Of a stretch of DNA of 64,000 bases, positions 1 to 21,513 are shown piece by piece. Positions within the stretch are counted from its first letter, which is position 1. Each line of letters opens with the position of its first letter. The notes beneath the pieces are model-generated. The model worked only from the letters and a program-made list of their open reading frames with translations, had not been told where the DNA came from and did no database searches. The DNA is taken from assembly GCA_965195345.1 (NCBI GenBank), contig OZ239628.1, positions 1,568,001 through 1,632,000 of the forward strand. The letters are read 5' to 3'. The stretch comes from an uncultured Thiomicrospira sp. GTDB lineage: Bacteria > Pseudomonadota > Gammaproteobacteria > CAKMZV01. The position numbers and the translations under genes are program-made.

Positions 1-298
1 GATCGTTATAACTGTAAGTATGGTTATATGATTGCTGAGGAGCCACGACCGAATGCGTTAAGATACGATCCATATGATCATAGCTCATACTCTCTTGACG
101 AGTGAGTACATAGTCTTGTTTCGATACTAAATTGTTCATCGCATCGTAACTAAACTCCAAATCCTGTATATTGGTGTTATCACCTTTAAGCATATTACCC
201 GTCTGCAAACCCATCAAATAACCACTCGCTTGATCGTAATCAAAACTACTCATCAAACTATTACCGCACAAGGCTCGGGTACGCCCCTCAACATCCGT
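1..298 (-). pseudogene. RHS/YD-repeat protein fragment (5'-truncated, runs off the left edge)
   Basis: Manual minus-strand translation gives TDVEGRTRALCGNSLMSSFDYDQASGYLMGLQTG...IQDLEFSYDAMNNLVSKQDYVLTRQESMSYDHMDRIL...HTYSYND, with periodic YD motifs typical of RHS cores. An in-frame TAA lies immediately upstream at 299-301; the first ATG is at 253. Confidence 0.75.
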
Positions 299-540
299 TT
301 AATTAATCAATAGATGGATGCCGTTATAAAAGGCATTCCATTTTATTACGAAACCTGTTTTTTATAATTTACAGGATATATGGGACGTTAATTAAGACCC
401 TATCAGCCATTAACGGCAATGGAAATTTATAATTTCATCCAAACATTTGAGATTTGTCGAAAAATGCGATAAGCGATCAATGATCCTTCATTTCTCTAAT
501 GATTTTTCAACACGATCAAAGAGCAAAACACGTGAGCCGA

Positions 541-569
541 AAATTAAAACGCCCCCACTAGGGAGGGCG
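541..569 (-). terminator. Intrinsic terminator of the tracrRNA
   Basis: GC-rich stem CGCCCTC/GGGGGCG followed by TTTTAATTT on the minus strand. Confidence 0.7.
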
Positions 570-656
570 ATGGCTCGTATTGAAACTTCGCCTGCGAAAT
601 TAAAATTTCTTGGTATGAAAAGCTATTTCGTCAGATTCCTATCAGTTATACTAAGT
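541..656 (-). ncRNA. tracrRNA
   Basis: Plus-strand 630-650 (GTCAGATTCCTATCAGTTATA) is a 21-nt exact match to the repeat in crRNA orientation. The minus strand reads anti-repeat TATAACTGATAGGAATCTGAC, then TCATACC (pairs with crRNA GUUGUGA), then a nexus-like hairpin GAAAT-TTTA-ATTTC, then a terminator CGCCCTC-CCTAGT-GGGGGCG-TTTT. Ends are approximate. Confidence 0.8.
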
Positions 657-686
657 AAATACATTTTAACTTCAAAAGAGAATTCT

Positions 687-3600
687 ATGTTAAAAATATT
701 TAGTTACGATATTGGTAGTAATAGTTTAGGGTGGAGTTATCTTCATAGACCCACTGAATACAATAAAGAAATAACAGGCGAACTAATTGATTGTGGTGTC
801 AGGATTTTCCTTGAAGCTGCGCAAGAAGGAAAACCACCTAAAAACGCTGACCGCCGAAAATATAGACTATTGCGCCGTGTTATTCAAAGACGTGCGAGGC
901 GGAAAGAAAAATTAGAGAACATTTTAATTAAAAACGATTTGCTTCCTGAGCACGTTAAAGATGCAAAACAAAGAGAGCGTTGCTTGAACGAATTAGGCAA
1001 TCCTTATACACTTCGAGCTAATGCTTTAGATAATCGACTTAAACCTTATGAGTTAGGTCGCGCCATCTTACACATTGGACAGCGCCGAGGCTTCTTGAGT
1101 ACTAAAAAAAATATTCTGGGAGATCTTGCCAATAATCCCGATATGATTGATTTGATGGACGACCAAGACGATTTGGAATATCTTGATGAAAGTCAACAAA
1201 AAGAAGAAACTGCATTTAAAGAATCGATCACAAAACTCAATGAAAAAATAAAGGATGCAAACGCTCGTACCTTAGGTGAATTCTTACACTTCCATCTACA
1301 GGATCCAAATAATCATTCTCGTAACCGAAATCATGCGCATGAAGATTTCTTGCGTACTGAGCGCAAAATGTATGAAGATGAATTGGCGCTTCTTTTCAAA
1401 AAACAAAAAGACCATCACAGCGCATTGACCAACCAATTTATAAAAGAAATAACAGATACAATATTTTTTCAACGCCCGCTCAAACTGAAAAAAAATCGCA
1501 TCGGCAAGTGTAGTCTTGAAAAGTCTCGATATCGTTGCGCTCTTGCACGACTTGAAGCGCAGCGTTTCAGATATATGAGCTTCATCGGCAATATTCGCTA
1601 TAACGGAGAATTTGGAAAAGAGGAACCGTTGACCCAAGAGCAACGAAAAGCCTTACACAATCTTTTTGAAAAAAATCCAAAAGTAACCATTACTAAATTT
1701 CGTCAAGCCGTTGGTTTTAATACCCGTGTGAAAATAAATTATTCAACAGCAGACTTTTCTAAACAAGCCATAGGCAACACGACGGCTTGCGCCATAGCAA
1801 AAGTATTTGAAGATTTTGATAAACAAGCCATAAAAAGCAACTCCACAGCTTGCGCCATAGAAAAAAAATGGGGCAACCTATCGCCTGCCAAACAAACCGC
1901 TTTGGTTGAGGATTTATTAACGATTAGATCAAAAAAAGCACTGTTCAACAGGCTACACTCAAAATGGGAGTTTGATCGTGATTTGAGCTTGAGATTGTGT
2001 ACAGTTACTCTTGACCCCAAACACTCGAATCTCTCCTTAAAAGCCATTAATAAAATACTTCCGCATTTGGAAAATGGTCATACCCTTAGTTGCGCAATAA
2101 ATCAGGCAAAATACGAGAAAAAATTAGATGATAATACAAAAATCAATGATCAAAAAGATTCATTAGATAAACTGCCCCTCCCCCCCGTTTTACCAAACCC
2201 AATCGTTAATCGTGGTATGAGCGAATTACGTCGCGTAGTAAATGCCATGATTTTAGAATTCGGCAAACCCGACCTGATTTGTATAGAGTTGGCAAGAGAC
2301 ATTGTGCAATCGAAAAAAAGTAGAAATGCCATAAAAAAACAAAATGATCGTAATGCAAAAATGAACGATGAAGCTAAAAGTGAATACGAAGTGTATGCCT
2401 CCAAACATCGATTAAGCCCTTACGCAAATAGAGAACAAAAATTGAAGTATCGCTTGTGGAAAGATCAAGATTATCAATGCATTTACAGCAATGAGAAAAT
2501 TTCAATAAATCAGCTATTTTCAGCAGAAATTGAAATTGATCACATTGTGCCCCTAAGCAAGAGCCTAGATGATTCTTATATGAATAAAGTTGTTTGTTTT
2601 TCAAATGAAAACAGAACCAAAGGACAACGAACACCTATAGAGGCTTTTGGAGGGAATGATCAAAAATGGCAAGATATAACACATTCATTAAAAGAGTGGA
2701 GCGATGATTTAACATCAAAAAGAAAACGTTTTTATATGACAAAAGAACAAATGAACGAGCATGACTTTACCAAGGCTCAATTAGTTAACAGCGGTTATCT
2801 CGCACGCGAAGCCCATAAATACCTTAAACAACTGGGGGTAGAAGTATTACCTACAAAAGGGCGAGCTGTTAGCTGGCTCCGCGCACAATGGGATCTCAAC
2901 CGTCTTATTAGTGAGGATACGACGAAAAACCGCGAAGATCACCGACACCATGCTATAGATGCGTGTGTGATTGCGCTAACAAACCGTTCACTTTATCAAC
3001 ACCTTGCTAACAACGCAGAAGATGTTGAACAAGGCAGAAAGACTCGCTATAAAGCGCCCGATTTGAGTGACCACCTGAAAAAAACACTAACAGATAAAAT
3101 AGATAAACTTATCATCTCACACCAAGTCATGCGTAAAGTAAAAGGTGCCCTTCATAAGGAAACAGGGCGTGGCTATAATGAACGCCTTAAGATTGCCTAC
3201 TCGCGTAAGCGCGTAGATAAAGATCTTTCAGTCAAAGATATTATTGATCCAATAGTTAAAGAACAAGTACTCCAACATATTCAAAACCATGACGGTGACG
3301 TAAAAAAAGCATTTGCTGAAACAGTATTCCACAAAGATGGAAAAACACCCATTCATCGAGTGCGAATCATTAGTGGATCAAATCTATCCCCTGAAAAAAA
3401 TGCAAAAACTAAACTTGGTATTAAAAGAAAAGGCGCAAATAATGAAATATTCCGTTGGATGAACTATGGAAATACGCATTGTGTGCATGTTTATCAAATA
3501 CAAGACAAATTAAATTGCAAGTTTATCACTTCTTGGGAAGCGGCACAAAAAACAAGAGGAAACCGCCTTCAAATACCCATCAACATTAAGGAAAATCAAA

Positions 3601-3824
3601 ATTTTTTAATGACACTTTATAAAAATGATACTGTACGCATTGCTGGCGAATTGTATCGCGTTCAAAAATTAGATTTACAAAGTAAAAGAATAACTGTGAG
3701 AAAAATACGCGAAGCAACAATAGACAATAAAGAGACAATGTTGCATAAAACCGTTGTTAAGTTTGTTGAAGAAGGGATGAAAAAAGTCAGGATTAATGTG
3801 TTGGGAAAAATAATAGCAAGGTAA
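687..3824 (+). CDS. cas9: Type II-C CRISPR endonuclease Cas9 (~1045 aa)
   Basis: RuvC-I (FSYDIGSNSLGW), Arg-rich bridge helix, RuvC-II (ICIELARD), HNH (EIDHIVPLSKSLDDSYMNKVVC...N..KG) and RuvC-III (HRHHAIDA) are all intact. Start placed at ATG 687 because the upstream ORF extension overlaps the tracrRNA. Confidence 0.97.
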   Translation: MLKIFSYDIGSNSLGWSYLHRPTEYNKEITGELIDCGVRIFLEAAQEGKPPKNADRRKYRLLRRVIQRRARRKEKLENILIKNDLLPEHVKDAKQRERCLNELGNPYTLRANALDNRLKPYELGRAILHIGQRRGFLSTKKNILGDLANNPDMIDLMDDQDDLEYLDESQQKEETAFKESITKLNEKIKDANARTLGEFLHFHLQDPNNHSRNRNHAHEDFLRTERKMYEDELALLFKKQKDHHSALTNQFIKEITDTIFFQRPLKLKKNRIGKCSLEKSRYRCALARLEAQRFRYMSFIGNIRYNGEFGKEEPLTQEQRKALHNLFEKNPKVTITKFRQAVGFNTRVKINYSTADFSKQAIGNTTACAIAKVFEDFDKQAIKSNSTACAIEKKWGNLSPAKQTALVEDLLTIRSKKALFNRLHSKWEFDRDLSLRLCTVTLDPKHSNLSLKAINKILPHLENGHTLSCAINQAKYEKKLDDNTKINDQKDSLDKLPLPPVLPNPIVNRGMSELRRVVNAMILEFGKPDLICIELARDIVQSKKSRNAIKKQNDRNAKMNDEAKSEYEVYASKHRLSPYANREQKLKYRLWKDQDYQCIYSNEKISINQLFSAEIEIDHIVPLSKSLDDSYMNKVVCFSNENRTKGQRTPIEAFGGNDQKWQDITHSLKEWSDDLTSKRKRFYMTKEQMNEHDFTKAQLVNSGYLAREAHKYLKQLGVEVLPTKGRAVSWLRAQWDLNRLISEDTTKNREDHRHHAIDACVIALTNRSLYQHLANNAEDVEQGRKTRYKAPDLSDHLKKTLTDKIDKLIISHQVMRKVKGALHKETGRGYNERLKIAYSRKRVDKDLSVKDIIDPIVKEQVLQHIQNHDGDVKKAFAETVFHKDGKTPIHRVRIISGSNLSPEKNAKTKLGIKRKGANNEIFRWMNYGNTHCVHVYQIQDKLNCKFITSWEAAQKTRGNRLQIPINIKENQNFLMTLYKNDTVRIAGELYRVQKLDLQSKRITVRKIREATIDNKETMLHKTVVKFVEEGMKKVRINVLGKIIAR

Positions 3825-3827
3825 CTC

Positions 3828-4742
3828 GTGATTAAAAGAATCATTGATATTGCCCAACCAAGTATGCTTTCAATAAAGAACAATCAATTATGTATTCAGC
3901 AAAACAAAGAGATTGTTAGCCAAACCCCTGTAGAAGATCTCGGTATATTGATTTTTTCACATTATGCTATTACATTATCATCTTATGTCATTAGCAAATG
4001 CCAAGAGAATAATGTAGTGGTCATCTTCTGCGATAAGAGAATGCTCCCCTGCTCCGTGTTCCTCCCTATATTTCAAGCAAACAATTTGCACCATAAAGTA
4101 CTCCAGCAACAGATGAATGCTTCGGTAACAAAGCACAAACAACTTTGGAAACAAGTCGTTACTCATAAAATAGATCAACAGTCTAAGACATTGAAAAAAC
4201 TTAATAGGCCGACTGCGTATTTACAACGGGTGATGAAAAACATTCTAACAGGCGATCGAACAAACGTTGAAGCACAAGCTGCACAATATTACTGGAAACA
4301 TTTGTTTGGAAAACCCTTTAAGCGCGACACAGCCCTTGATGGGTACAATCAACTATTCAATTACGGCTACGCTATAGCACGTTCAATGGTTGCGCGCGCG
4401 TTATGTGGCGCAGGGCTTCACCCTACCATTGGTATATTTCATCGCAATCAAAACAATGGGCTATGTTTAGCCGATGATTTAATTGAACCTTTTCGTCCTT
4501 GGGTTGATTATCTAATTGTTACACATCTCAATGATTGCGATAATGCAACAGTCGATAAGCTTTTCAAGTCTCGGATTCTTTCGTTACCTGCACTGCAAAT
4601 CCAGTATAAAAGCAAACGCATGCCATTGATGGTTGCTCTGCATTATTTAATGGCAGATTTCAAAGAAGGATTGAGCAGACCTCTAAAATTGGAGTATCCA
4701 CAATGGGATCGAGACATCACCGAGTGGTTTACGGAGGATTAG
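3828..4742 (+). CDS. cas1: Type II CRISPR-associated integrase Cas1
   Basis: NVEAQAAQYYW, FNYGYAIARS, GIFHRN and LADDLIEPFRP motifs; directly after cas9. Confidence 0.97.
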   Translation: MIKRIIDIAQPSMLSIKNNQLCIQQNKEIVSQTPVEDLGILIFSHYAITLSSYVISKCQENNVVVIFCDKRMLPCSVFLPIFQANNLHHKVLQQQMNASVTKHKQLWKQVVTHKIDQQSKTLKKLNRPTAYLQRVMKNILTGDRTNVEAQAAQYYWKHLFGKPFKRDTALDGYNQLFNYGYAIARSMVARALCGAGLHPTIGIFHRNQNNGLCLADDLIEPFRPWVDYLIVTHLNDCDNATVDKLFKSRILSLPALQIQYKSKRMPLMVALHYLMADFKEGLSRPLKLEYPQWDRDITEWFTED

Positions 4743-5053
4743 ACAGCATGTGGGTTATCGTACTTTTCGATTTACCAACAGATACCAAGAAAGCACGCAG
4801 ACAATACACGCTATTTCGCAAGCACCTATTAAACGATGGTTTCACCATGATGCAGTATTCAGTTTATATGCGCCACAGTGCGAGCGATGAAAATGCTGAA
4901 GTTCATGTAAAGAGAGTAAAGCAAACATTACCTCCCGATGGAGAAGTGCGAATTATAAAAATTACTGATAAGCAGTTCTCACGTATTCAAGTATTTTATG
5001 GGAAAAACCGCAAACCCATCGAACAAGCCCCATCACAATTATCACTTTTATGA
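4724..5053 (+). CDS. cas2: CRISPR-associated endoribonuclease Cas2
   Basis: MWVIVLFDLP...FRKHLLNDGFTMMQYSVY...ITDKQF motifs. The start is uncertain (GTG 4724 or ATG 4748). No csn2 or cas4 follows, which indicates subtype II-C. Confidence 0.95.
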   Translation: MVYGGLDSMWVIVLFDLPTDTKKARRQYTLFRKHLLNDGFTMMQYSVYMRHSASDENAEVHVKRVKQTLPPDGEVRIIKITDKQFSRIQVFYGKNRKPIEQAPSQLSLL

Positions 5054-5103
5054 CAATCTTAACGGGGCTAAATTTAACAAAATCAAATATTTACAACAAC
5101 TCA
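5054..5103. promoter_or_regulatory. Probable CRISPR leader (spacer-integration end)
   Basis: Short AT-rich stretch between cas2 and repeat 1. The degenerate repeats lie at the opposite end, consistent with II-C polarity. Confidence 0.55.
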
Positions 5104-7750
5104 GATTATAACTGATAGGAATCTGACTGCAAATCACAACTACAAACGTATACGAAGACCTTTTGAGAAGATTATAACTGATAGGAATCTGACTGCAAAT
5201 CACAACTCTCAGAATTACAGCTCCGTAATTCCTCACGATTATAACTGATAGGAATCTGACTGCAAATCACAACCTCCAGACAAGACTATGTTATTCAGTC
5301 GGTGATTATAACTGATAGGAATCTGACTGCAAATCACAACAGACAAAGTGCCACCGCCATCAGCGCAAGAGATTATAACTGATAGGAATCTGACTGCAAA
5401 TCACAACCGGATATACGGCTGTTAATAAACGTTAGCTGATTATAACTGATAGGAATCTGACTGCAAATCACAACCTCTAAGGGTGTGCATGATGATATTG
5501 TGGAGATTATAACTGATAGGAATCTGACTGCAAATCACAACTGAGCGGCGACAGCGTAATTGTGCTTTCTGGATTATAACTGATAGGAATCTGACTGCAA
5601 ATCACAACTTTGACAAATACCTCCCCGATTGCAACCATGATTATAACTGATAGGAATCTGACTGCAAATCACAACACGTTAATACCTTTAATCACTTTAT
5701 TTTTTGATTATAACTGATAGGAATCTGACTGCAAATCACAACGCTAAGCAGGTTGTAGAAAAACCTGATATGGATTATAACTGATAGGAATCTGACTGCA
5801 AATCACAACTCTTCTAATGTCACTACTGCCATTGTTCTTGATTATAACTGATAGGAATCTGACTGCAAATCACAACTATTATAACTCACTCCCATTGGTT
5901 TAGCAGATTATAACTGATAGGAATCTGACTGCAAATCACAACTATGAATAATCCAGCTTACACCTACAGAGAGATTATAACTGATAGGAATCTGACTGCA
6001 AATCACAACTTGTGTTGATGATTTGGCACTTGAAATTTTGATTATAACTGATAGGAATCTGACTGCAAATCACAACAAAAATGACGCAAGAAGAATTTAA
6101 CGATTTGATTATAACTGATAGGAATCTGACTGCAAATCACAACCTGTAGTTTAGTAGGTATTTGTTGCTGCGGGATTATAACTGATAGGAATCTGACTGC
6201 AAATCACAACAATGAACAGTAAAACCCAGTTCAGCATCTGGATTATAACTGATAGGAATCTGACTGCAAATCACAACTTGTGTATGTGTCTATCAATTGT
6301 TGAACAGATTATAACTGATAGGAATCTGACTGCAAATCACAACAGCCAAGCACAAACATATCAGTCCCTTTGGGATTATAACTGATAGGAATCTGACTGC
6401 AAATCACAACTTGAGCATAGGCAGTAGCAAAAAGGAAGTAGATTATAACTGATAGGAATCTGACTGCAAATCACAACTGAAACAGCTGTGGTATCTTTTT
6501 CAGTGATGATTATAACTGATAGGAATCTGACTGCAAATCACAACTTGTGGCCAATGGGAGCGTTACTTCATAGCGATTATAACTGATAGGAATCTGACTG
6601 CAAATCACAACTACAAAGGTAATCTCACAAAAAGTCAAACTGATTATAACTGATAGGAATCTGACTGCAAATCACAACTCAAAATCAAGAATGATGCGAC
6701 TGGAACATGATTATAACTGATAGGAATCTGACTGCAAATCACAACTCTACAAAGGTTCTTTTATATCTATGGAAAGATTATAACTGATAGGAATCTGACT
6801 GCAAATCACAACCATTTTAGTCGTCTTTAATCATGGAGTGCGGATTATAACTGATAGGAATCTGACTGCAAATCACAACTTCTTCCGTGACCACCCTCTA
6901 CTGCAATTTGATTATAACTGATAGGAATCTGACTGCAAATCACAACTTATTGAAAAAATACATCGACCGCTGTAGTGATTATAACTGATAGGAATCTGAC
7001 TGCAAATCACAACTATGCTCACAAAACTATCAAACAGCCATTTGATTATAACTGATAGGAATCTGACTGCAAATCACAACTGTTACTGAAGAAGATAGGC
7101 TAATTATCTGGATTATAACTGATAGGAATCTGACTGCAAATCACAACAAGAGGTTGTGTTTAATGGAATATTTACCTGATTATAACTGATAGGAATCTGA
7201 CTGCAAATCACAACTGTTACTGAAGAAGATAGGCTAATTATCTGGATTATAACTGATAGGAATCTGACTGCAAATCACAACAAGAGGTTGTGTTTAATGG
7301 AATATTTACCTGATTATAACTGATAGGAATCTGACTGCAAATCACAACTAAGCATTTGCGCACTAAAAGAAGCCCTGCGATTATAACTGATAGGAATCTG
7401 ACTGCAAATCACAACTCTCAGCCTTTGGCGTGTCATTTATTTTCTGATTATAACTGATAGGAATCTGACTGCAAATCACAACTAAGTAGAAGGTGCTATT
7501 CGCAGATGAATAGATTATAACTGATAGGAATCTGACTGCAAATCACAACGGGGGTGGGCGTGTGCGTTTTCAAAACCAAGATTATAACTGATAGGAATCT
7601 GACTGCAAATCACAACACTAAGAACTAACGCAAATTCTACAACCGAGATTATAACTGATAGGAATCTGACTGCAAATCACAACTGTGACATTAGTCGGGG
7701 TGGCAGGAGTGGGGATTATAACTGATAGGAATCTGACTGCAAATCACAAC
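5104..7750 (-). CRISPR. CRISPR array: 40 identical 37-bp repeats and 39 spacers of 29-30 bp
   Basis: Plus-strand repeat GATTATAACTGATAGGAATCTGACTGCAAATCACAAC, period 66-67 bp, starts 5104 to 7714. The minus orientation (GTTGTGATTTGC...CAGTTATAATC) begins GTT and carries a TATAAT -10 box at its 3' end, as in II-C arrays with repeat-internal promoters. Confidence 0.98.
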
Positions 7751-7779
7751 TGGTTAGGATAATGGGATTTAGAAAAGAA

Positions 7780-7803
7780 GACTTTGCGCGCATGCAAACA
7801 ATC
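7780..7803 (-). terminator. Weak hairpin or possible terminator after the small ORF
   Basis: Minus strand TTTGC-ATGCGC-GCAAA followed by GTCTTCTTTTCT, just downstream of the stop at 7814. Confidence 0.35.
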
Positions 7804-7813
7804 GAGCGTGCTT

Positions 7814-7903
7814 TTATTTTAAAAACAATTGCCGAATAATCTCGACAAGCGAACGGTAAAAGATAACGATGCACACGAGCATTCCAAGTATTATTAACTC
7901 CAT
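7814..7903 (-). CDS. Unannotated 29-aa hydrophobic peptide, type I toxin-like
   Basis: ATG GAG TTA...AAA TAA translates as MELIILGMLVCIVIFYRSLVEIIRQLFLK: a TM-length hydrophobic run plus an amphipathic basic tail. An extended -10 lies 7 nt upstream of the ATG. Confidence 0.5.
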   Translation of the reverse strand: MELIILGMLVCIVIFYRSLVEIIRQLFLK

Positions 7904-7910
7904 TAGAGGG

Positions 7911-7938
7911 ATTGTAGCATGAATGATTTAAGAGTTAA
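7911..7938 (-). promoter_or_regulatory. Putative sigma70 promoter for the small ORF / pre-crRNA
   Basis: Minus strand TTAACT-16 nt-TACAAT with a TG extension (TGCTACAAT). The predicted start at ~7903-7904 implies a leaderless mRNA. Confidence 0.5.
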
Positions 7939-7944
7939 TATTGA

Positions 7945-8024
7945 GATTATAACTGGTAGGAATCTGACTGCAAATCACAATCTCGCAGTTAAAGCAATAC
8001 CTATAAGGTCAGGTAATAACTTAT
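7945..8024. CRISPR. Isolated degenerate repeat, 30-bp spacer-like segment and eroded repeat remnant
   Basis: 7945-7981 is the repeat with 2 substitutions (GATTATAACTGGTAGG...CACAAT). Exactly 67 bp later, at 8012, GGTAATAACTTAT matches the repeat start at 10/13 positions. Confidence 0.75.
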
Positions 8025-8103
8025 CATCTTTCATTTCCTGAATAACGTTTTCTTTTTGCCATCTCAAGTTAAATCGTGGACAATATGCATATTACCAAAA
8101 TCA

Positions 8104-8136
8104 TAAAAAACGGGGGTTTTTCCTTCAAAAACCCCC
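8104..8136 (-). terminator. Strong hairpin with U-tract on the minus strand
   Basis: GGGGGTTTTT-CCTTC-AAAAACCCCC is a perfect 10-bp inverted repeat at 8112-8136, with an A-run at 8105-8110. Confidence 0.6.
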
Positions 8137-8165
8137 ACTAAATAGACTGGAGCAGTTTTATCAGC

Positions 8166-10727
8166 ATGACCACCCATACTCCTATGATGCAGCAGTACCT
8201 ACGGATAAAAGCTGATCATCCAGATATGCTGTTGTTTTATCGTATGGGCGATTTCTATGAATTATTTTTTGACGACGCTAAACGTGCTAATAGCCTTCTT
8301 GATATTACGTTAACGCACAGAGGGAAATCTAGTGGTGAACCCATCCCAATGGCTGGCGTTCCCTATCATAGCGTCGATAATTATTTGAGTCGCTTGCTTG
8401 AATTAGGTGAGTCAATCGTCATTTGTGAACAGGTTGGGGAGGTCACAGGAAAGGGCCCTGTTGAACGCCAAGTTACTCGCATCATCACTCCTGGCACTTT
8501 AATTGATGAAAACCTTTTAAAAAATTCAAGCGCAAATTATTTATTAAGCGCTTGGTGTGAGAATAACATTTGGGGCTGTGCTTGGTTGGATTTATCAAGT
8601 GGCGAATTTTGTTGCAAACAGGTTGACGATAAGCTTCAACTTGAAGCTGAAATTGAGCGCATGCACCCACAAGAGATATTAATCACTTATGAGCATGCAC
8701 TATTGCTAAAAAACGAGCGTGTGCACAACATTCCCGAATGGTGGTTTGATAAAGATAACGCTTTCAATGTCTTATGCAAACAATTTAAAACGCATGACCT
8801 ATCTGGATTCGGCGTCAACGAGAAGCCTTTGGCTTTGATGTGTGCAGGAGCTGCTTTAATATACGCGAAAGAAATGCATCGGACTTCGCTGGCACATATA
8901 AATACCATTCAAGTTGAAAACAATAACGAGTACGTCTATCTTGATGCTGTTTGTAGACGTAACCTTGAAATTGAATATAACTTGCAAGGCACACGGCTTC
9001 ATACATTAATGGCCGTTCTTGATAATACCCAGACCCCCATGGGGAAAAGACTTTTAAATCAATGGATTAATGCTCCTTTGAGAAGCAACTCAATACTAAT
9101 GCAACGTTTAAATTCCATTGAAAGTATGATGCAAAATGAGCAAAGTCCTAAGATACGCCATTTACTAAAATCATTTGGGGACATTCCACGAATATTAACA
9201 CGTATAGCCCTCGAAACAGCAAGACCTCGCGATCTCTCGCAATTAAGACTGGCGCTTGATAACATTCCCATCCTAAATGATCTTTTACAACCATGTATTG
9301 AGTCAATTAATCCTTTGAAGTCTTGTCCTGAAGTACTTGAATTATTACAAAAATCAATAGTTGAAGAACCGCCTGTACTGATTCGCGATGGAGGCGCTAT
9401 TAAGAAAGGTTTCAATGAAGAGCTGGATGACTTGCGTACATTACGCGAAAATGCTGCAGAATATTTGTTAAAACTTGAAGGAGAAGAAAAAGAACGAACA
9501 AACAACCCCAATCTGCGTGTTAGTTACAATCGCGTGCACGGCTATTACATTGAAATATCTCATGGTTTCAAAGGAGAAATACCAGCACACTATCAGCGCA
9601 GACAAACACTTAAAAATGCGGAGCGTTATATCACTCCCGAGTTGAAAAGTTTTGAGGACAAAGTATTAAGCGCGAATGAAAAGGCATTAGCGCTTGAGAA
9701 AAAACTGTTTATTGAAGTTCAAGGCAGCATTTTCAAGCATCTTAAGCTATTACAAGAGATTGCCAATCATTTTGCGTTAATCGACGTTTATTCAACGTTA
9801 GCCGAGCGCGCAACAACATTAAACTGGAACAAACCAGAATACGTAGACGACATATGTATGGACATAAAAGAAGGCAGACATCCTGTTGTGGAAGAGTCCC
9901 TCAATGAAAATTTTATTCCAAATGACTGCCACCTTGATCCTGATAAATCTTTACTGCTGATTACAGGACCTAATATGGGAGGAAAGTCGACTTATATGCG
10001 CCAAACGGCACTCATTGCTTTGCTTGCACGCAGTGGCTCTTATGTTCCAGCCAAGCATGCAAAAATAGGCAATATAGACCGTATATTTACGCGAATAGGA
10101 GCGTCCGACGATCTGGCATCCAATCGATCCACTTTTATGGTTGAGATGACAGAAACAGCCAATATTTTAAATAATGCCACGAAGCATTCTTTGATTTTAA
10201 TGGACGAAATTGGTCGCGGGACATCAACATTTGATGGATTATCTTTAGCATGGGAATGTGCTGTTTCCTTGATACAGAGGAAGGCTTTATGTTTATTTGC
10301 CACACACTATTTTGAATTAACCGCTTTAGCTCGTTCTTACGACAATGTGAATAATGTGCACCTAAAAGCAATCGAATACAAAAATGAAATTCGTTTCCTT
10401 TATCACATCGAGAATGGAGCAACCAATCAATCGTATGGTTTACAAGTTGCCCAGCTTGCAGGCATACCCCAAAAGGTTATTAAGGCGGCAAGCAAGAAGC
10501 TTTGTGAATTAGAAAATCAAAATGTAAAAATAAACAACCAACTTGACCTTTTTGTTTCTTCGGATGCGGCATTACCATTGGAGAAACAAGATAGCATTGA
10601 TGACAAGGTGCAGCCTATCATAGATGAAATAAAATCAATACAACTCAATAGTCTTTCGCCTTTACAAGCTCTGAATATTTTGTCGGACATTCAAGAAAAA
10701 ATTGAAAAAGTCAATAATGAAATATAG
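8166..10727 (+). CDS. mutS: DNA mismatch repair protein MutS
   Basis: HTPMMQQY...[12 protein letters not shown]-terminus, Walker [26 protein letters not shown]. Confidence 0.98.
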
Positions 10728-11332
10728 TCTATTCACAATCCGCAATTTTGATATTAAACTTAACAAGAATCACAGAGATATTTCCGAGCACCAAGAATTT
10801 CACGTACGCTAATTCAGTGAAAGGTCACTGTTTAAAATAATCTCTAGCGTGCGCTTTAGGCATCCAGCCCGCCAGTGCGCGAAAACGAAGCGCTTGATAA
10901 TTGCGCCAAATAGGTAAAACCAACAAAATTGCAAATAACTTTTTAGGCATTGACCAACTTATATCAGAAGGACAACTACTCCACCACCGGTTATTAACGC
11001 CGAAATGTTTTGTTTTCAACAATAGATGCACGACAAACTTCCAGTTATTTGAAAAATAATGAAGTTTTTTAATCATCGATCTACCGCTCTAAAAGTTACT
11101 AAAATGCTGGTTTCATGTCCAATCATAGATAACACATGGAATAACCGAGGGGATGAGAGATAAGGCATTTAGAGGATTATATCCTAAAAGCATACCTGCA
11201 CTATTTTAACATTCTTTCTATATATCACCTTCATGATAAGATCTCATCAGACCACCAAATTACTCCAATATTAAGGATGTGCTTTTCAAATTTACAAAAC
11301 TGTAATGCAACAATGGTAGAATCTGTCAAGTT

Positions 11333-12073
11333 ATGCGTTCGGTTATATTTTATTTGTGTATTACTTTTTTCAGCTCCTTTGCTGTAGCAGAAGCGTGGCG
11401 CTTTGAAAGTGGCAACAACAAGGTCCAACTGATTGAGCTATTTACTTCACATGGGTGCAGCTCTTGCCCTCCTGCTGAAAAATGGATCAACAAATACAAA
11501 AATAATTCAAAATTGTGGAATCGTTTTGTTCCAGTTTCCTTTCATGTCGATTATTGGAATTTCCTTGGATGGAAAGATCCTTATTCAAACGCATCTTATT
11601 CGCAACGCCAATATAACCATGTATCAAATAGCAACCTAAGTTATCGATATACACCTGGATTTGTAGTCAACGGGAAAGAATGGAAAGGATTTTTCTTTCA
11701 TCACCCTCTTCCTCTACTCACTCAATCGGCAAAAAATTTAAGCGTCCATGTTGTTGATAATTCGTTACTTGTTCGTTACGAGAATGCAAAATCGGACGAG
11801 TTAATTGTCAATGTTGCCACTCTTGGATTTGGTTTGAAGGACGCTATAGAGCGCGGAGAAAATAAGGGCAAAGTTCTCGAGAGTGATTTTGTTGTTTTAC
11901 ATTTCAAACAAAAACCTTCTAAAACTGGAGTTTGGAACGTTGTTTTGCCTGAAAGCATAGATGTCCAAGGAGCCAATAAATTGGCTTTAGCAGTATGGGT
12001 AAGTGATTTACAACAGCGACCTATTCAGGCAACGGGAAACTGGGCACCTAAGTCATGGTTGCTTACTAAGTAG
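11333..12073 (+). CDS. Secreted DUF1223-family thioredoxin-like protein
   Basis: Signal peptide; ELFTSHGCSSCPPAE, FHVDYWNFLGWKDPY and YTPGFVVNG motifs. Confidence 0.85.
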   Translation: MRSVIFYLCITFFSSFAVAEAWRFESGNNKVQLIELFTSHGCSSCPPAEKWINKYKNNSKLWNRFVPVSFHVDYWNFLGWKDPYSNASYSQRQYNHVSNSNLSYRYTPGFVVNGKEWKGFFFHHPLPLLTQSAKNLSVHVVDNSLLVRYENAKSDELIVNVATLGFGLKDAIERGENKGKVLESDFVVLHFKQKPSKTGVWNVVLPESIDVQGANKLALAVWVSDLQQRPIQATGNWAPKSWLLTK

Positions 12074-14029: not shown

Positions 14030-15238
14030 ATGAAAAGTAAATTGCTTAGTCCTTTGACAGTCATAATAACCGCTTCATTATTAGTTACTCTTTCTCTCGG
14101 ATTCCGTCAATCTTTAGGAGTTTATACAGCTCCTTTTGATGAGATAAGTGATGCTGGTCGACAAATGTTTGGACTAGCAATTGCTGTGCAAAATTTGCTT
14201 TGGGGTATTGCCGCTCCTATTTTCGGAGGGCTTGCTGATCGCTATGGCGCGCATAAATCCGCCCTAATCGGAGCCATACTTTACTCCATGGGCTTGTTTT
14301 TCATGCAGGATGCAAGCTTAACGAATCTTTTTTCAGGACAAATATTGATTGGGCTTGGCTTAGGCGCTTGTGGAATGTCTACTGCTCTCGGGGCTGTATC
14401 AAAAATAAGTACTCCGGAAAAACGCTCCATGCTCCTCGGTGTCGTATCAGCTGCTGGATCACTTGGTCAATTCTTGCTGGTACCTATTGCTGGGCAATTA
14501 CTAATGGAATTTGGCTGGGCTTCATCATTACTTATTCTAAGCATGATTGCAACAATTATGATTCCTCTATCCTATGGTTTGAAAGGATCTCATATTCGAC
14601 AGCCTGAAAAAGGCAATCATTTTTCAACCAAAGAAGCCATCTCTCAAGCTTTTAATCATCGAGACTACTTATTGCTTATGGCTGGTTTTTTTGTATGTGG
14701 CTTTCAGGTTGTTTTTGTTGCAACGCATTTAATCGCTTATTTAGTTGAGCATCATATTTCTTCAGAGATTGCCTCGTGGTCTTTGGCGTTAGTTGGACTT
14801 TTCAACATATTTGGAACGCTATTGTGCGGCTATTTGGGAGGGAAGTATCGCAAAAAAGTGATTTTGACTTGGTTTTATTTGCTTCGATCACTCGTCATCG
14901 CATTATTTTTAATCTTACCACTAACCCCGATAACGGCTATAGGGTTTGGTGCGCTTATAGGTTTTCTCTGGTTAGGAACCGTTCCATTAACCAGTGGACT
15001 AGTCATCTATTTTTTTGGAGTACGTTACGTGACTTTAATATACGGAATTATATTTTTCTCACATCAATTGGGTTCTTTTCTGGGTGCTTGGCTTGGTGGT
15101 TGGGCTTACGAGAACTTTCAAAGTTACTCAATTGTGTGGGGTTTGGCTATTTTATTTGGGATTATTTCCGCCGCTTTGCATCACCCTATTCGTGAGTCTG
15201 CACCCAAAGTTGAAATAAAATCGGAGTCTATCACCTGA
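14030..15238 (+). CDS. MFS transporter
   Basis: About 12 hydrophobic segments; motif A GGLADRYG; GFFVCGFQ and HQLGSFLGAWLGG. Confidence 0.9.
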   Translation: MKSKLLSPLTVIITASLLVTLSLGFRQSLGVYTAPFDEISDAGRQMFGLAIAVQNLLWGIAAPIFGGLADRYGAHKSALIGAILYSMGLFFMQDASLTNLFSGQILIGLGLGACGMSTALGAVSKISTPEKRSMLLGVVSAAGSLGQFLLVPIAGQLLMEFGWASSLLILSMIATIMIPLSYGLKGSHIRQPEKGNHFSTKEAISQAFNHRDYLLLMAGFFVCGFQVVFVATHLIAYLVEHHISSEIASWSLALVGLFNIFGTLLCGYLGGKYRKKVILTWFYLLRSLVIALFLILPLTPITAIGFGALIGFLWLGTVPLTSGLVIYFFGVRYVTLIYGIIFFSHQLGSFLGAWLGGWAYENFQSYSIVWGLAILFGIISAALHHPIRESAPKVEIKSESIT

Positions 15239-17369: not shown

Positions 17370-19918
<2,549 letters not shown>

Positions 19919-20112
19919 TCAAAAACAAATCAAACATCTTACAAAGTAGAGCGCGCTTTTGCTGTTTTGAATACTTATAAGAAAAAGTCATCAGTGGACG
20001 TAAAGAAGGCTAAAAATGCTGGTTCTTAAAACATTTCGACTTATAAAGCCACACTAAAAAAATTCAACGCTGACTTGAAATTTACTGAAGACTTACCTAA
20101 AAACTCTCGTGC

Positions 20113-21513
20113 TCATCTTCCGTACTTATCTTCTACCCGTTCAATGTCGTCTTCGCCCGTATACTCCCCTACTTGAACTTCAATCATTACCAGATCTTCG
20201 CTCTCGTGATTTTCTAAACGATGCAACTGTCCCATTTTTATATAAGTCGACTCATTTGGATAGACAATAAATATATCCTCACCCACTGTAACCGTTGCTT
20301 TTCCAGAAACAACAACCCAATGCTCATTGCGATAGCGATGCTTTTGTAAAGATAACCTACCCGATGTTTTAACCACGATCCGTTTAACCTTGTAACCCGT
20401 TCCTACTGCAAGGATTTCATAACTTCCCCATGGACGGTGTGCTTTTTGATGAATTTCAGTCAATTCTGGAATGGACTGTTTTATCAAGGTCACTAGCCCC
20501 TTGATGCCTTGAGAAGAACCAATCTTCGATATCATCAAAGCATCGCTTGTATCGACAATCAGTGTATCCTCTATATCAAGCAATGAGATGTGCCTCGTGT
20601 CGGAAACAATTAAATTATTTTTTGAATTAATGCATATAGGCTCAGGATCATCTGCTGATTGCTTCAAATTAGAATTTGAGGAAGAGTCATTATCAATAAC
20701 TTCTTTCAATGAATCAAAGCTACCCACATCAGACCAACCCATATCGCATACAACTACTTTAACTGCATCCGAATGCTCCATCACTGCATAGTCAATACTT
20801 TCATCTGGTATCAATTGCATGTGCTCCATTAAAATTTGTAGGGAGTCTTCAGAATTTCTTTGTGCGGAATCATATGCCAATTTTGAACGCTCAAATATTT
20901 CCCCATTAAATTTTTTCAACTCCTCTAAGTAAACACCTGCTTGGAAACAAAACATGCCACTATTCCATAAATAATTGCTTTTCTTTAAATAAGATTGGGC
21001 AACATCTAAAGTGGGTTTTTCATTGAACGACAGTACACGACTCCCTTCAACTTCTATGTAGCCATAGCCCGTTTCAGGTTTATCAGGTTTAATTCCAAAA
21101 GTAACCAGCCCCCCTTCTTTCGCTAATAAGAAGGCATTATTAACTGCTTCATTATAAGCACTTACATTTCTAATCAAATGATCTGAAGGTACAACCAAAG
21201 CAACTTCTTCTGGATCCATATCAAAACATGCCAAAGCAATAGCTGGTGCTGAATTTTTCCCAATAGGTTCAATTAAAAAGTTTAAATCGTCGGTGTTTTT
21301 TAATACCCCTTCTAACTGATCAATCGCCAAAAAGTATTGATCCTGATTTGAAACAACCATTAATTTCGAGCATAAACTTTGATTTCTTTCAATCGTTTGC
21401 TGAAATAAAGAACGCCCCTCAAACATCCTCACAAATTGCTTAGGCATTAGCTTTCGACTTAATGGCCAAAGCCTTGTTCCAGAACCTCCAGCTAATATAA
21501 TTCCTTTAATCAT
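20113..21513 (-). CDS. manC: Mannose-1-phosphate guanylyltransferase / mannose-6-phosphate isomerase
   Basis: ILAGGSGTRLWPLSR..PKQF, WNSGMF, SIDYAVME, and a C-terminal cupin RPWG...LSLQKH..R.EHW. Confidence 0.95.
   Translation of the reverse strand: MIKGIILAGGSGTRLWPLSRKLMPKQFVRMFEGRSLFQQTIERNQSLCSKLMVVSNQDQYFLAIDQLEGVLKNTDDLNFLIEPIGKNSAPAIALACFDMDPEEVALVVPSDHLIRNVSAYNEAVNNAFLLAKEGGLVTFGIKPDKPETGYGYIEVEGSRVLSFNEKPTLDVAQSYLKKSNYLWNSGMFCFQAGVYLEELKKFNGEIFERSKLAYDSAQRNSEDSLQILMEHMQLIPDESIDYAVMEHSDAVKVVVCDMGWSDVGSFDSLKEVIDNDSSSNSNLKQSADDPEPICINSKNNLIVSDTRHISLLDIEDTLIVDTSDALMISKIGSSQGIKGLVTLIKQSIPELTEIHQKAHRPWGSYEILAVGTGYKVKRIVVKTSGRLSLQKHRYRNEHWVVVSGKATVTVGEDIFIVYPNESTYIKMGQLHRLENHESEDLVMIEVQVGEYTGEDDIERVEDKYGR

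Follow-up and report, generated by a model that had tools for sequence, protein, structure and literature searches.

A 194-nt segment with a candidate membrane-peptide gene between two repeats of a type II-C CRISPR array: possibly an oversize spacer

Introduction

How does a segment of 194 nucleotides (nt), laid out like a small gene, come to stand between two repeats of a CRISPR array? The question is raised by a CRISPR-Cas locus at the start of a 64,000-nt stretch of DNA, hereafter the window, from an uncultured Thiomicrospira sp. (assembly GCA_965195345.1, contig OZ239628.1, positions 1,568,001 to 1,632,000). An initial annotation of this DNA had described the segment as a hidden membrane-peptide gene, a candidate toxin or addiction module held in check by Cas9 with the trans-activating CRISPR RNA (tracrRNA) or by a repeat-derived RNA. 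The explanation favoured here, tentatively and without going so far as to call it probable, is that the segment is an oversize spacer of mobile-element origin which holds a complete mini-gene and forms, together with a repeat, the last and oldest repeat-spacer unit (231 bp) of the array. The mobile-element origin, the translation, the leaderless start and the function as a spacer are what we infer from the arrangement described below.

A gene-like segment at the end of the array

The features at the cas-distal end of the locus are as follows (coordinates in the window).

5104..7750, minus strand: CRISPR array, 40 identical repeats (37 nt each) with 39 spacers (29-30 nt) between them, period 66-67
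7751..7944, minus strand: inter-repeat segment of 194 nt, single copy in the genome, read here as an oversize spacer
7786..7811, no strand assigned: GC-rich hairpin of 6 pairs
7814..7903, minus strand: open reading frame (ORF) of 29 codons plus stop (7816-7814), for a predicted hydrophobic peptide with a basic amphipathic tail
7819..7848, minus strand: weak terminator-like hairpin (stem 7848-7829, 8 pairs, 3 of them G-C) with a T-run, overlapping codons 19-29
7911..7938, minus strand: predicted promoter P2, TTAACT, 16 nt and TG-n-TACAAT (extended -10), expected start at about 7904
7945..7981, minus strand: terminal cas-distal repeat with 2 transitions
7974-7969 (-35) and 7951-7946 (-10), minus strand: predicted promoter P1 within that repeat, reading into the 194-nt segment

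The initial annotation had noticed that the gap before the isolated repeat is not a multiple of the array period, and this is confirmed: 40 repeats without a mismatch are followed by a 41st copy at 7945-7981, where no match would be expected by chance, and the 194 nt fit neither the period of 66-67 nor, against 39 regular spacers of 29-30 nt, the ruler length of Cas1-Cas2. Also the contents that it had listed are all present on the strand of the CRISPR RNAs (crRNAs), namely the extended -10 box with TTAACT upstream, the ATG 7 nt later and the ORF, as is the second TATAAT of the isolated repeat, which is aimed at the ORF; the two transitions leave both hexamers of P1 intact. The hairpin with a U-rich tail exists as well (7848-7829 with its T-run), although there are two hairpins and not one, and the T-run lies inside the ORF.

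The ATG (7903-7901) stands 7 nt past the -10 box of P2, at the expected +1/+2, and because of this position the peptide mRNA made from P2 would be leaderless. The ORF (7903-7814) translates as MELIILGMLVCIVIFYRSLVEIIRQLFLK. The GC-rich hairpin comes after the stop codon; read on the plus strand it precedes a T-run, read on the minus strand a poor U-tract, and 35 nt separate it from the first array repeat. According to RNA folding, the leader of a transcript from P1 can pair across the ORF start region over 9-10 bp. The folding z-scores (-1.86, +0.77, -0.95 and -0.44, with +0.77 for the short peptide RNA) contain nothing unusual, so that a structured small RNA is not indicated, and Rfam gave no match in positions 1-12000 of the window at E up to 1. 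Two further ideas about the segment were rejected, namely a degenerate repeat hidden upstream of P2, where 11 of 36 positions match the family repeat, and an origin as a miniature inverted-repeat transposable element or insertion sequence (IS), since there is no transposase, no terminal inverted repeats and a single copy.

Variant copies of the segment in other contexts

The region is present as Logan contigs in four runs (X1-X4) of one study, which were compared with positions 4900-8400. Variant copies of the segment exist in other sequence contexts. In X1, a core unitig covering 7800-7887 is joined on both sides by different continuations. A 13.6-kb contig of this run (depth 19.7) ends with 79 nt that correspond to 7751-7829 with 7 differences and has no continuation into the repeat, while a 7.3-kb contig (depth 17) starts with 88 nt that correspond to 7858-7945, again with 7 differences, and then goes on with sequence that does not resemble the isolated repeat. 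In a 515-nt contig (depth 4.7), repeat-like sequence (7717-7750) is joined to a variant of 7751-7829 with 10 differences, and the sequence before it is unlike that of the window. The arrangement of the window itself is confirmed in a second sample, X2, where a 260-nt contig spans 7781-8040 with 3 differences. Altogether, homology at about 90% identity extends over the full length between the two repeats, leaving no room for an old spacer.

At a distance of 5.1 kb, the 13.6-kb contig has on the other strand 31 nt that agree, but for 1 difference, with spacer 6478-6507 and one base flanking it. A second piece of 31 nt, likewise on the other strand and ending at 7482, is identical to spacer 7483-7512 with one base added, and it directly abuts the 7751 end, as deduced from the joint row 7482/7751 alone. 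The homologue of the segment thereby appears to lie in DNA that is targeted by one or two ordinary spacers of the same array, and a segment that stands between repeats and has its homologue in such DNA would be spacer-like except for its length. In type II-A systems further spacers are acquired beside the Cas9 cut site, and the adjacent protospacer would fit cleavage-primed acquisition of this kind (PMC7105378, in excerpt). The segment is distal to spacer 7483-7512 and should therefore be the older of the two, which agrees with the polarity of the array considered next. Three protospacer flanks, two of them inferred from contig pieces and one in phage CRP-5, have a T at position 6 and a G at position 8 in common, a number of flanks too small to define a protospacer adjacent motif.

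Polarity of the array and the isolated repeat

On the minus strand every repeat, including the isolated one, contains TTTGCA-17-TATAAT (10/12 consensus in a promoter scan, this promoter being a consensus match only) and starts with GTTGTG, as type II repeats do. Repeat-embedded promoters are a feature of Neisseria and Campylobacter type II-C arrays, and Zhang et al. 2013 is reportedly the original account of those in N. meningitidis. Both properties point to crRNAs being read on the minus strand, towards cas2, from a promoter within each repeat. The leader is placed at the cas-proximal flank:

5054..5103, no strand assigned: leader with the family motif AA.TCAA....TT

Relatives of the locus were collected through Cas9. 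A single-protein scan for Cas9 relatives found none, and from the 589 of an alignment scan 80 were kept (37-51% identity). Arrays with a repeat definable over at least 30 nt were obtained in 48 of the 80 loci, all in the same orientation relative to cas9. In these 48 loci and in the window (5064-5103) the motif AA.TCAA....TT occurs within 40 nt on the cas2 side of the first repeat, and it is likely a leader-anchoring element in the integration of spacers; no conservation is seen in the 40 nt on the far side of the last repeat. Of the 33 related loci with a complete distal end, 14 have a degenerate last repeat on the cas-distal side (1-9 mismatches), against 1 of 48 for the first repeat on the cas-proximal side. 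N. meningitidis, too, has its leader beside the repeat that is transcribed last (PMC12477760, in excerpt). Given the conserved leader motif beside cas2 and the degenerate distal repeats, the isolated repeat sits at the oldest end, and it is most simply seen as the array's own terminal, oldest repeat at the trailer end. Its predicted pairing with the candidate tracrRNA amounts to -32.2 kcal/mol. Between this repeat and mutS there is, besides, a strong terminator-like hairpin on the minus strand (8109-8139, 13 pairs and a T-run), which no upstream gene could use as a terminator and which is overlapped by a promoter-like site of 9/12.

Is the open reading frame a gene?

The length of the ORF is unremarkable, as an ATG ORF of at least 29 aa arises in 34% of dinucleotide shuffles of the 194 nt (n = 5000). 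Its best 15-residue hydropathy window (2.87) is reached by only 0.12% of the same shuffles, and so high a value is attained by no other of the 512 ATG ORFs of 25-45 aa that 164 kb of the genome's intergenic-like sequence contain. In the X1 variant the four listed differences of the ORF all fall in codons 2-6, two of them silent and the others L3F and L6I. When four changes are placed at random in those 16 bases, the start survives and no stop arises in 32% of trials, and the changes are in addition all silent or hydrophobic-for-hydrophobic with P = 0.031. The -10 box of the X1 variant is TATAAT (place 7914). The X2 variant has R24Q, and the same change turns a T-G pair of the first hairpin into T-A. 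The GC-rich hairpin is broken in two variant copies (7786, 7787, 7789) by changes that are not compensated, so that its structure is not conserved.

A real small membrane-peptide gene is plausible because of the outlying hydrophobicity, the geometry of promoter and leaderless start and the mostly conservative changes in the variants. To this extent the initial annotation stands, while the Cas9-linked control and the addiction role that it attached to the gene find no support, as argued below.

Searches for relatives of the segment covered several collections. With the 194 nt as query, phages gave nothing and plasmids only two short matches at chance level; tblastn of the peptide against the phage and plasmid collections gave none, where the BLAST low-complexity filter may mask the peptide. 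Pfam and PADLOC gave no match to the peptide, the best PHROGs values were E = 0.04 and 0.38, and the best non-self match in 300 genomes of the class (E = 0.011) contains a stop. A 466-nt query against 40 relatives returned two short matches only, of 21 and 32 nt, and the segment was not found.

Control by the CRISPR-Cas system

As possible guides, all 39 spacers were compared with 7751-8165, together with the end of the 194 nt that faces the array and the stretch of 30 nt upstream of the isolated repeat, 41 in all; apart from two self matches none has a PAM-proximal (protospacer adjacent motif) run of at least 8 nt. The initial annotation had itself reported no convincing guide-target match to the promoter, and with these 41 guides its statement is borne out. 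No plus-strand, that is antisense, promoter in 7600-8050 passes the scan; by eye a poor one can be made out (cTGACt, 19 nt, GATAAT), the hairpin of which is broken in the variant copies. A comparable ORF is found within 400 nt beyond the last repeat in none of the 33 related loci with a complete distal end.

Control by Cas9, tracrRNA or a repeat-derived RNA, and with it an addiction role, thus finds no guide, no antisense promoter, a tracrRNA placed elsewhere and no counterpart in the 33 loci; a Cas9-controlled toxin or addiction unit is unsupported. The peptide resembles type I toxins in being small (below 60 aa) and hydrophobic and in having a charged C-terminal part.

Inserts in related arrays

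Kilobase-size gaps between repeats were seen in 5 of the 48 related arrays. Four of the five contain transposase-like genes, in L028, L066 and L083 as well as in L071, where the match is weak and below the Pfam cut-off. The inserts of these four measure 1.3-3 kb, and their transposase-like genes match rve, Mutator, and Mu with IS21, the weak match in L071 being to MULE. In L083 a 509-aa gene with a Fic/DOC domain lies between two degenerate repeats (18315-21301).

The one analogue is found in L073, the Cas9 of which is 40% identical and apparently comes from another phylum. Here a 335-nt insert (14769-15103) lies between the penultimate and the terminal repeat, and on the crRNA strand it has a Shine-Dalgarno sequence (GGAGG-ATG) at the head of a 52-aa ORF, the predicted membrane protein of which contains an extended hydrophobic part and ends in a basic tail. 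Another ORF (47 aa), likewise with GGAGG-ATG, follows and is cut off by the repeat at the insert boundary. The 52-aa protein has no homologue, and for the 47-aa ORF nothing convincing was found, with four matches to long repetitive proteins (E 2e-5 to 9e-4). The insert has no phage or plasmid match and no second copy in its own genome. A further 17 arrays with 36-37-nt repeats, from 20 regions sampled from the phylum, contain no insert of 100-600 nt, so that analogues amount to 1 of 65 other arrays; they are rare, yet the one case has the same slot and the same strand.

This recurrence could be taken to mean that the spacer slot serves as an expression site. As type II-C repeats are promoters, a spacer slot could express captured mini-genes, and the 29-aa peptide and the unrelated 52-aa protein of L073 would be selected cargo, a toxin or abortive-infection effector, with read-through mRNA processed by tracrRNA, ribonuclease III (RNase III) and Cas9 and an output that changes upon loss or inhibition of Cas9 or tracrRNA. 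We regard this as decidedly unlikely. The truncated gene of L073 looks like a random foreign fragment, which favours an oversize spacer over a designed cassette.

A possible origin of the unit

Under the favoured explanation, a 194-bp piece of a mobile element would have become fixed in the terminal spacer slot, either by aberrant integration or by conversion between element and array. The fragment would have brought along one whole transcription unit, consisting of a sigma-70 extended -10 promoter, a leaderless ATG and a weak terminator. From P2 a leaderless mRNA would be made for a single hydrophobic helix of 29 codons with a basic tail, and from P1 in the terminal repeat a longer RNA, with the leader able to pair over the start region. 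Since every repeat is itself a predicted promoter and both P1 and P2 read into the unit, the peptide RNA is expected to be made independently of Cas9. Most transcripts would stop at the weak terminators. Read-through would end in the first array repeat, where pairing with tracrRNA and cleavage by RNase III could yield a crRNA against the element. The peptide is probably a genuine small membrane protein of that element.

Several points weigh against this explanation. A Cas1-Cas2 reaction that inserts 194 bp is not known to us. The ATG at 7903 lacks a Shine-Dalgarno sequence, and the T-run of the terminator-like hairpin comes before the stop codon. In X1 codons 7-29 are free of synonymous differences, although the flanks diverge by 12-25%; the stretch 7800-7887 is a single X1 unitig of 88 nt without differences, with one change (7833) in X2, and such an identical core would fit nucleotide-level constraint or recent recombination better than selection on the protein. 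The foreign context depends on one set of contig pieces from a single study, and the spacer matches are 31-nt pieces at the presumed detection limit, one of them known only from a joint row. The 515-nt contig could mean that the repeat and the segment together were a mobile or ancestral unit. Finally, no homologue of the peptide was found in the genomes, phages, plasmids and family libraries searched, an exact-pattern search for a core 28-mer had no hit in viral or metagenome contigs, and the exact pattern of spacer 7483-7512 had none in viral contigs.

Alternative explanations

That the insert is foreign or a relic in the same way, with an ORF that is not translated and thus a non-coding remnant or a small RNA, is an explanation we consider rather unlikely but take seriously. 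Leaderless translation is usually weak, which counts here together with the missing Shine-Dalgarno sequence, the T-run ahead of the stop codon, the 88-nt core (7800-7887) that lacks synonymous differences in X1 between flanks 12-25% different, the want of homologues and the 34% of shuffles that give an ORF of this length. Such a remnant would hardly be expected to be a hydrophobicity outlier (0.12% of shuffles, 1 of 512 genome-wide), to change conservatively or silently in codons 2-6 (P = 0.031) and to have its ATG exactly at the expected start of an extended -10 promoter; for a small RNA, no stable structure is predicted in the segment. The direction of transfer may also be questioned. If the repeat with its 194 nt were the primary unit, it could be a native trailer with a relic repeat that an element copied as a decoy, in the manner of solitary repeats that act as RNA anti-CRISPRs, or it could have recombined in from a repeat borne by an element. 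Solitary repeats on phages inhibit CRISPR (PMC10651486 and bioRxiv 10.64898/2026.06.03.729762, both in excerpt), kilobase insertions between repeats do occur in 5 of 48 related arrays, four with transposase-like genes, and in the 515-nt contig repeat-like sequence (7717-7750, with differences) is joined to a variant of 7751-7829. However, the deeper 13.6-kb contig joins 7751 to a spacer-like piece and not to a repeat, the exact pattern of a repeat 28-mer matched no viral or metagenome contig, and a single crossover would leave the entire element between the repeats and not 194 bp. We hold this scenario to be improbable.

The model of the initial annotation, a toxin silenced by Cas9, tracrRNA and a repeat-derived guide as a type II analogue of CreTA/CreP, with dependence on cas9 or abortive infection when Cas9 is inhibited, appears highly improbable. 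It draws on the general look of type I toxins that the hydrophobic helix and basic tail give the peptide (PMC5961336, in excerpt), on the slightly degenerate stand-alone repeat that adjoins the ORF and still pairs with tracrRNA (-32.2 kcal/mol), on the existence of CRISPR-effector-repressed toxins in type I systems, as excerpts of the literature describe them, and on the leader from the repeat promoter that can pair over the start region (9-10 bp). In addition to the lack of any guide among 41 with a PAM-proximal run of at least 8 nt against 7751-8165, self matches apart, and the absence of a comparable ORF, up to 400 nt past the array, from all 33 related loci with complete ends, the sole promoter-like site upstream of the isolated repeat is a 9/12 match that overlaps the terminator hairpin, and variant copies outside any array indicate a gene that does not depend on the CRISPR context. 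An unrepressed toxin behind two good promoters should, moreover, kill. To the idea that the ORF is irrelevant and the isolated repeat is either a crRNA-like RNA of the scaRNA (small CRISPR/Cas-associated RNA) type or the anti-repeat of a second, plus-strand tracrRNA we give hardly any credence. When the repeat is read on the plus strand, both substitutions form G-U wobbles with the crRNA repeat (-60 kcal/mol), a scaRNA has been described in the type II-C system of N. meningitidis (PMC13431127, in excerpt), and stand-alone repeats are common, being found in 76% of 1167 II-C loci (PMC10120712, in excerpt). Against these precedents, a tracrRNA with a bulged duplex and a terminator is already at the family's usual place upstream of cas9, and therefore the isolated repeat is not needed as one; no plus-strand promoter in 7600-8050 passes the scan, and the 8109-8139 hairpin has no U-tail behind it on the plus strand; and for the stretch of 30 nt upstream of the repeat no target was found in 7751-8165, in a search at the locus only.

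Comparison with known systems

The case is a variation on known things, spacers on the one hand and genes of small hydrophobic peptides beside arrays on the other. In Clostridioides difficile type I toxin-antitoxin modules are co-localised with CRISPR arrays (Maikova et al. 2018, PMC5961336, in excerpt), and the likeness lies in a small hydrophobic peptide with a charged C-terminal part right beside an array, some of the modules being in prophages. The C. difficile toxins are 50-53 aa long, lie outside type I-B arrays and have a proven antisense RNA antitoxin and proven toxicity (same excerpt), whereas here a putative peptide of 29 aa lies between two type II-C repeats and no antisense promoter was found. 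CreTA and CreP share with this locus a degenerate stand-alone repeat next to a small, potentially toxic gene within a CRISPR-cas locus; their defining guide-to-promoter complementarity was searched for here and not found. CreT is an RNA toxin and CreP a 103-aa KilAC protein, both of type I systems according to excerpts of their descriptions, and in the literature searched no such toxins are described for Cas9 systems.

The type II-C locus of N. meningitidis is similar in its repeat of about 36 nt that ends in a -10 box, its crRNAs that start inside each spacer, its array read towards cas2 with a leader that is cas-proximal and downstream in transcription, and its tracrRNA beside cas9; a gene-bearing spacer slot was not found described in the excerpt (PMC12477760). 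With an ordinary spacer the segment shares the position exactly between two repeats, with no leftover, and the identity of about 90% to DNA that contains other protospacers, but its length is 194 nt against 29-30 nt and it has a promoter, an ORF and a terminator of its own. The IS inserts in L028, L066, L071 and L083 are likewise foreign DNA that breaks the regular spacing; those are 1.3-3 kb long with transposase-like genes, whereas the 194 bp have no transposase and no inverted repeats. A search of open-access full texts gave no description of genes or small proteins between CRISPR repeats, or of membrane peptides linked to Cas9.

Should the favoured explanation be true, an array can take in invader DNA far beyond the ruler length, and an intact invader gene can be transcribed between its repeats, the type II-C repeats being promoters, which would be a new way for arrays to carry cargo. 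On this locus one could also ask in concrete terms whether small membrane peptides next to arrays help to stabilise the arrays or serve defence, such peptides having been reported until now only in C. difficile. For annotation it advises caution, as both array finders and gene callers skip a unit of this kind. Should the ORF prove to be untranslated, no more would remain than an oversize spacer of an unusual kind.

The surrounding locus

The remaining features of the locus are given below.

541..657, minus strand: candidate tracrRNA, anti-repeat 650-630, terminator 569-550 with a T-run
687..3824, plus strand: cas9, 1045 aa counted from ATG 687 (TIGR01865, E 5e-175)
3828..4742, plus strand: cas1 of the type II (cas1_NMENI) class
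4703..5053, plus strand: cas2, by family match
from 8166: mutS

With cas9, cas1 and cas2 but neither csn2 nor cas4, the gene content of the locus at the window start is that of a type II-C CRISPR-Cas system; no plus-strand ORF of at least 60 aa lies between cas2 and the array. The anti-repeat of the candidate tracrRNA (21 nt) is perfectly complementary to the crRNA repeat and lies 36 nt upstream of cas9, and about 60 nt separate it from the strong intrinsic terminator. In the duplex predicted with the repeat (-37.2 kcal/mol) a bulge separates a lower from an upper stem. Of 39 related loci, 35 have at the identical place and strand an anti-repeat that reaches -35 kcal/mol or better, against plus-strand control values of -15 to -37; of the 40 loci listed for this comparison L015 was dropped, its cas9 not being at the assumed position. 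The protein recorded for the locus (P0002) has 1114 aa, 69 more than the reading from ATG 687, and if the extra residues are N-terminal its start would overlap the candidate tracrRNA. ATG 687 is the likelier start of cas9.

In both same-genus genomes (L090 and L091) mutS directly follows a purH-like gene and is only 62% identical, and no CRISPR-cas is found there. The whole cas-array block is therefore lineage-specific, and synteny with these genomes is uninformative on the 194-nt segment. Within the array, a tandem duplication of 134 bp covers 7081-7311, where spacer 7081-7110 is found again at 7215-7244 and spacer 7148-7177 at 7282-7311. Matches of the spacers to the organism's own genome do not exceed 19 nt. 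Spacer 6344-6373 agrees in 29 of 30 bases with the thymidylate synthase gene of Roseobacter phage CRP-5, the sole mismatch being at the PAM-proximal base, and this match hints at marine phages as targets of the array.

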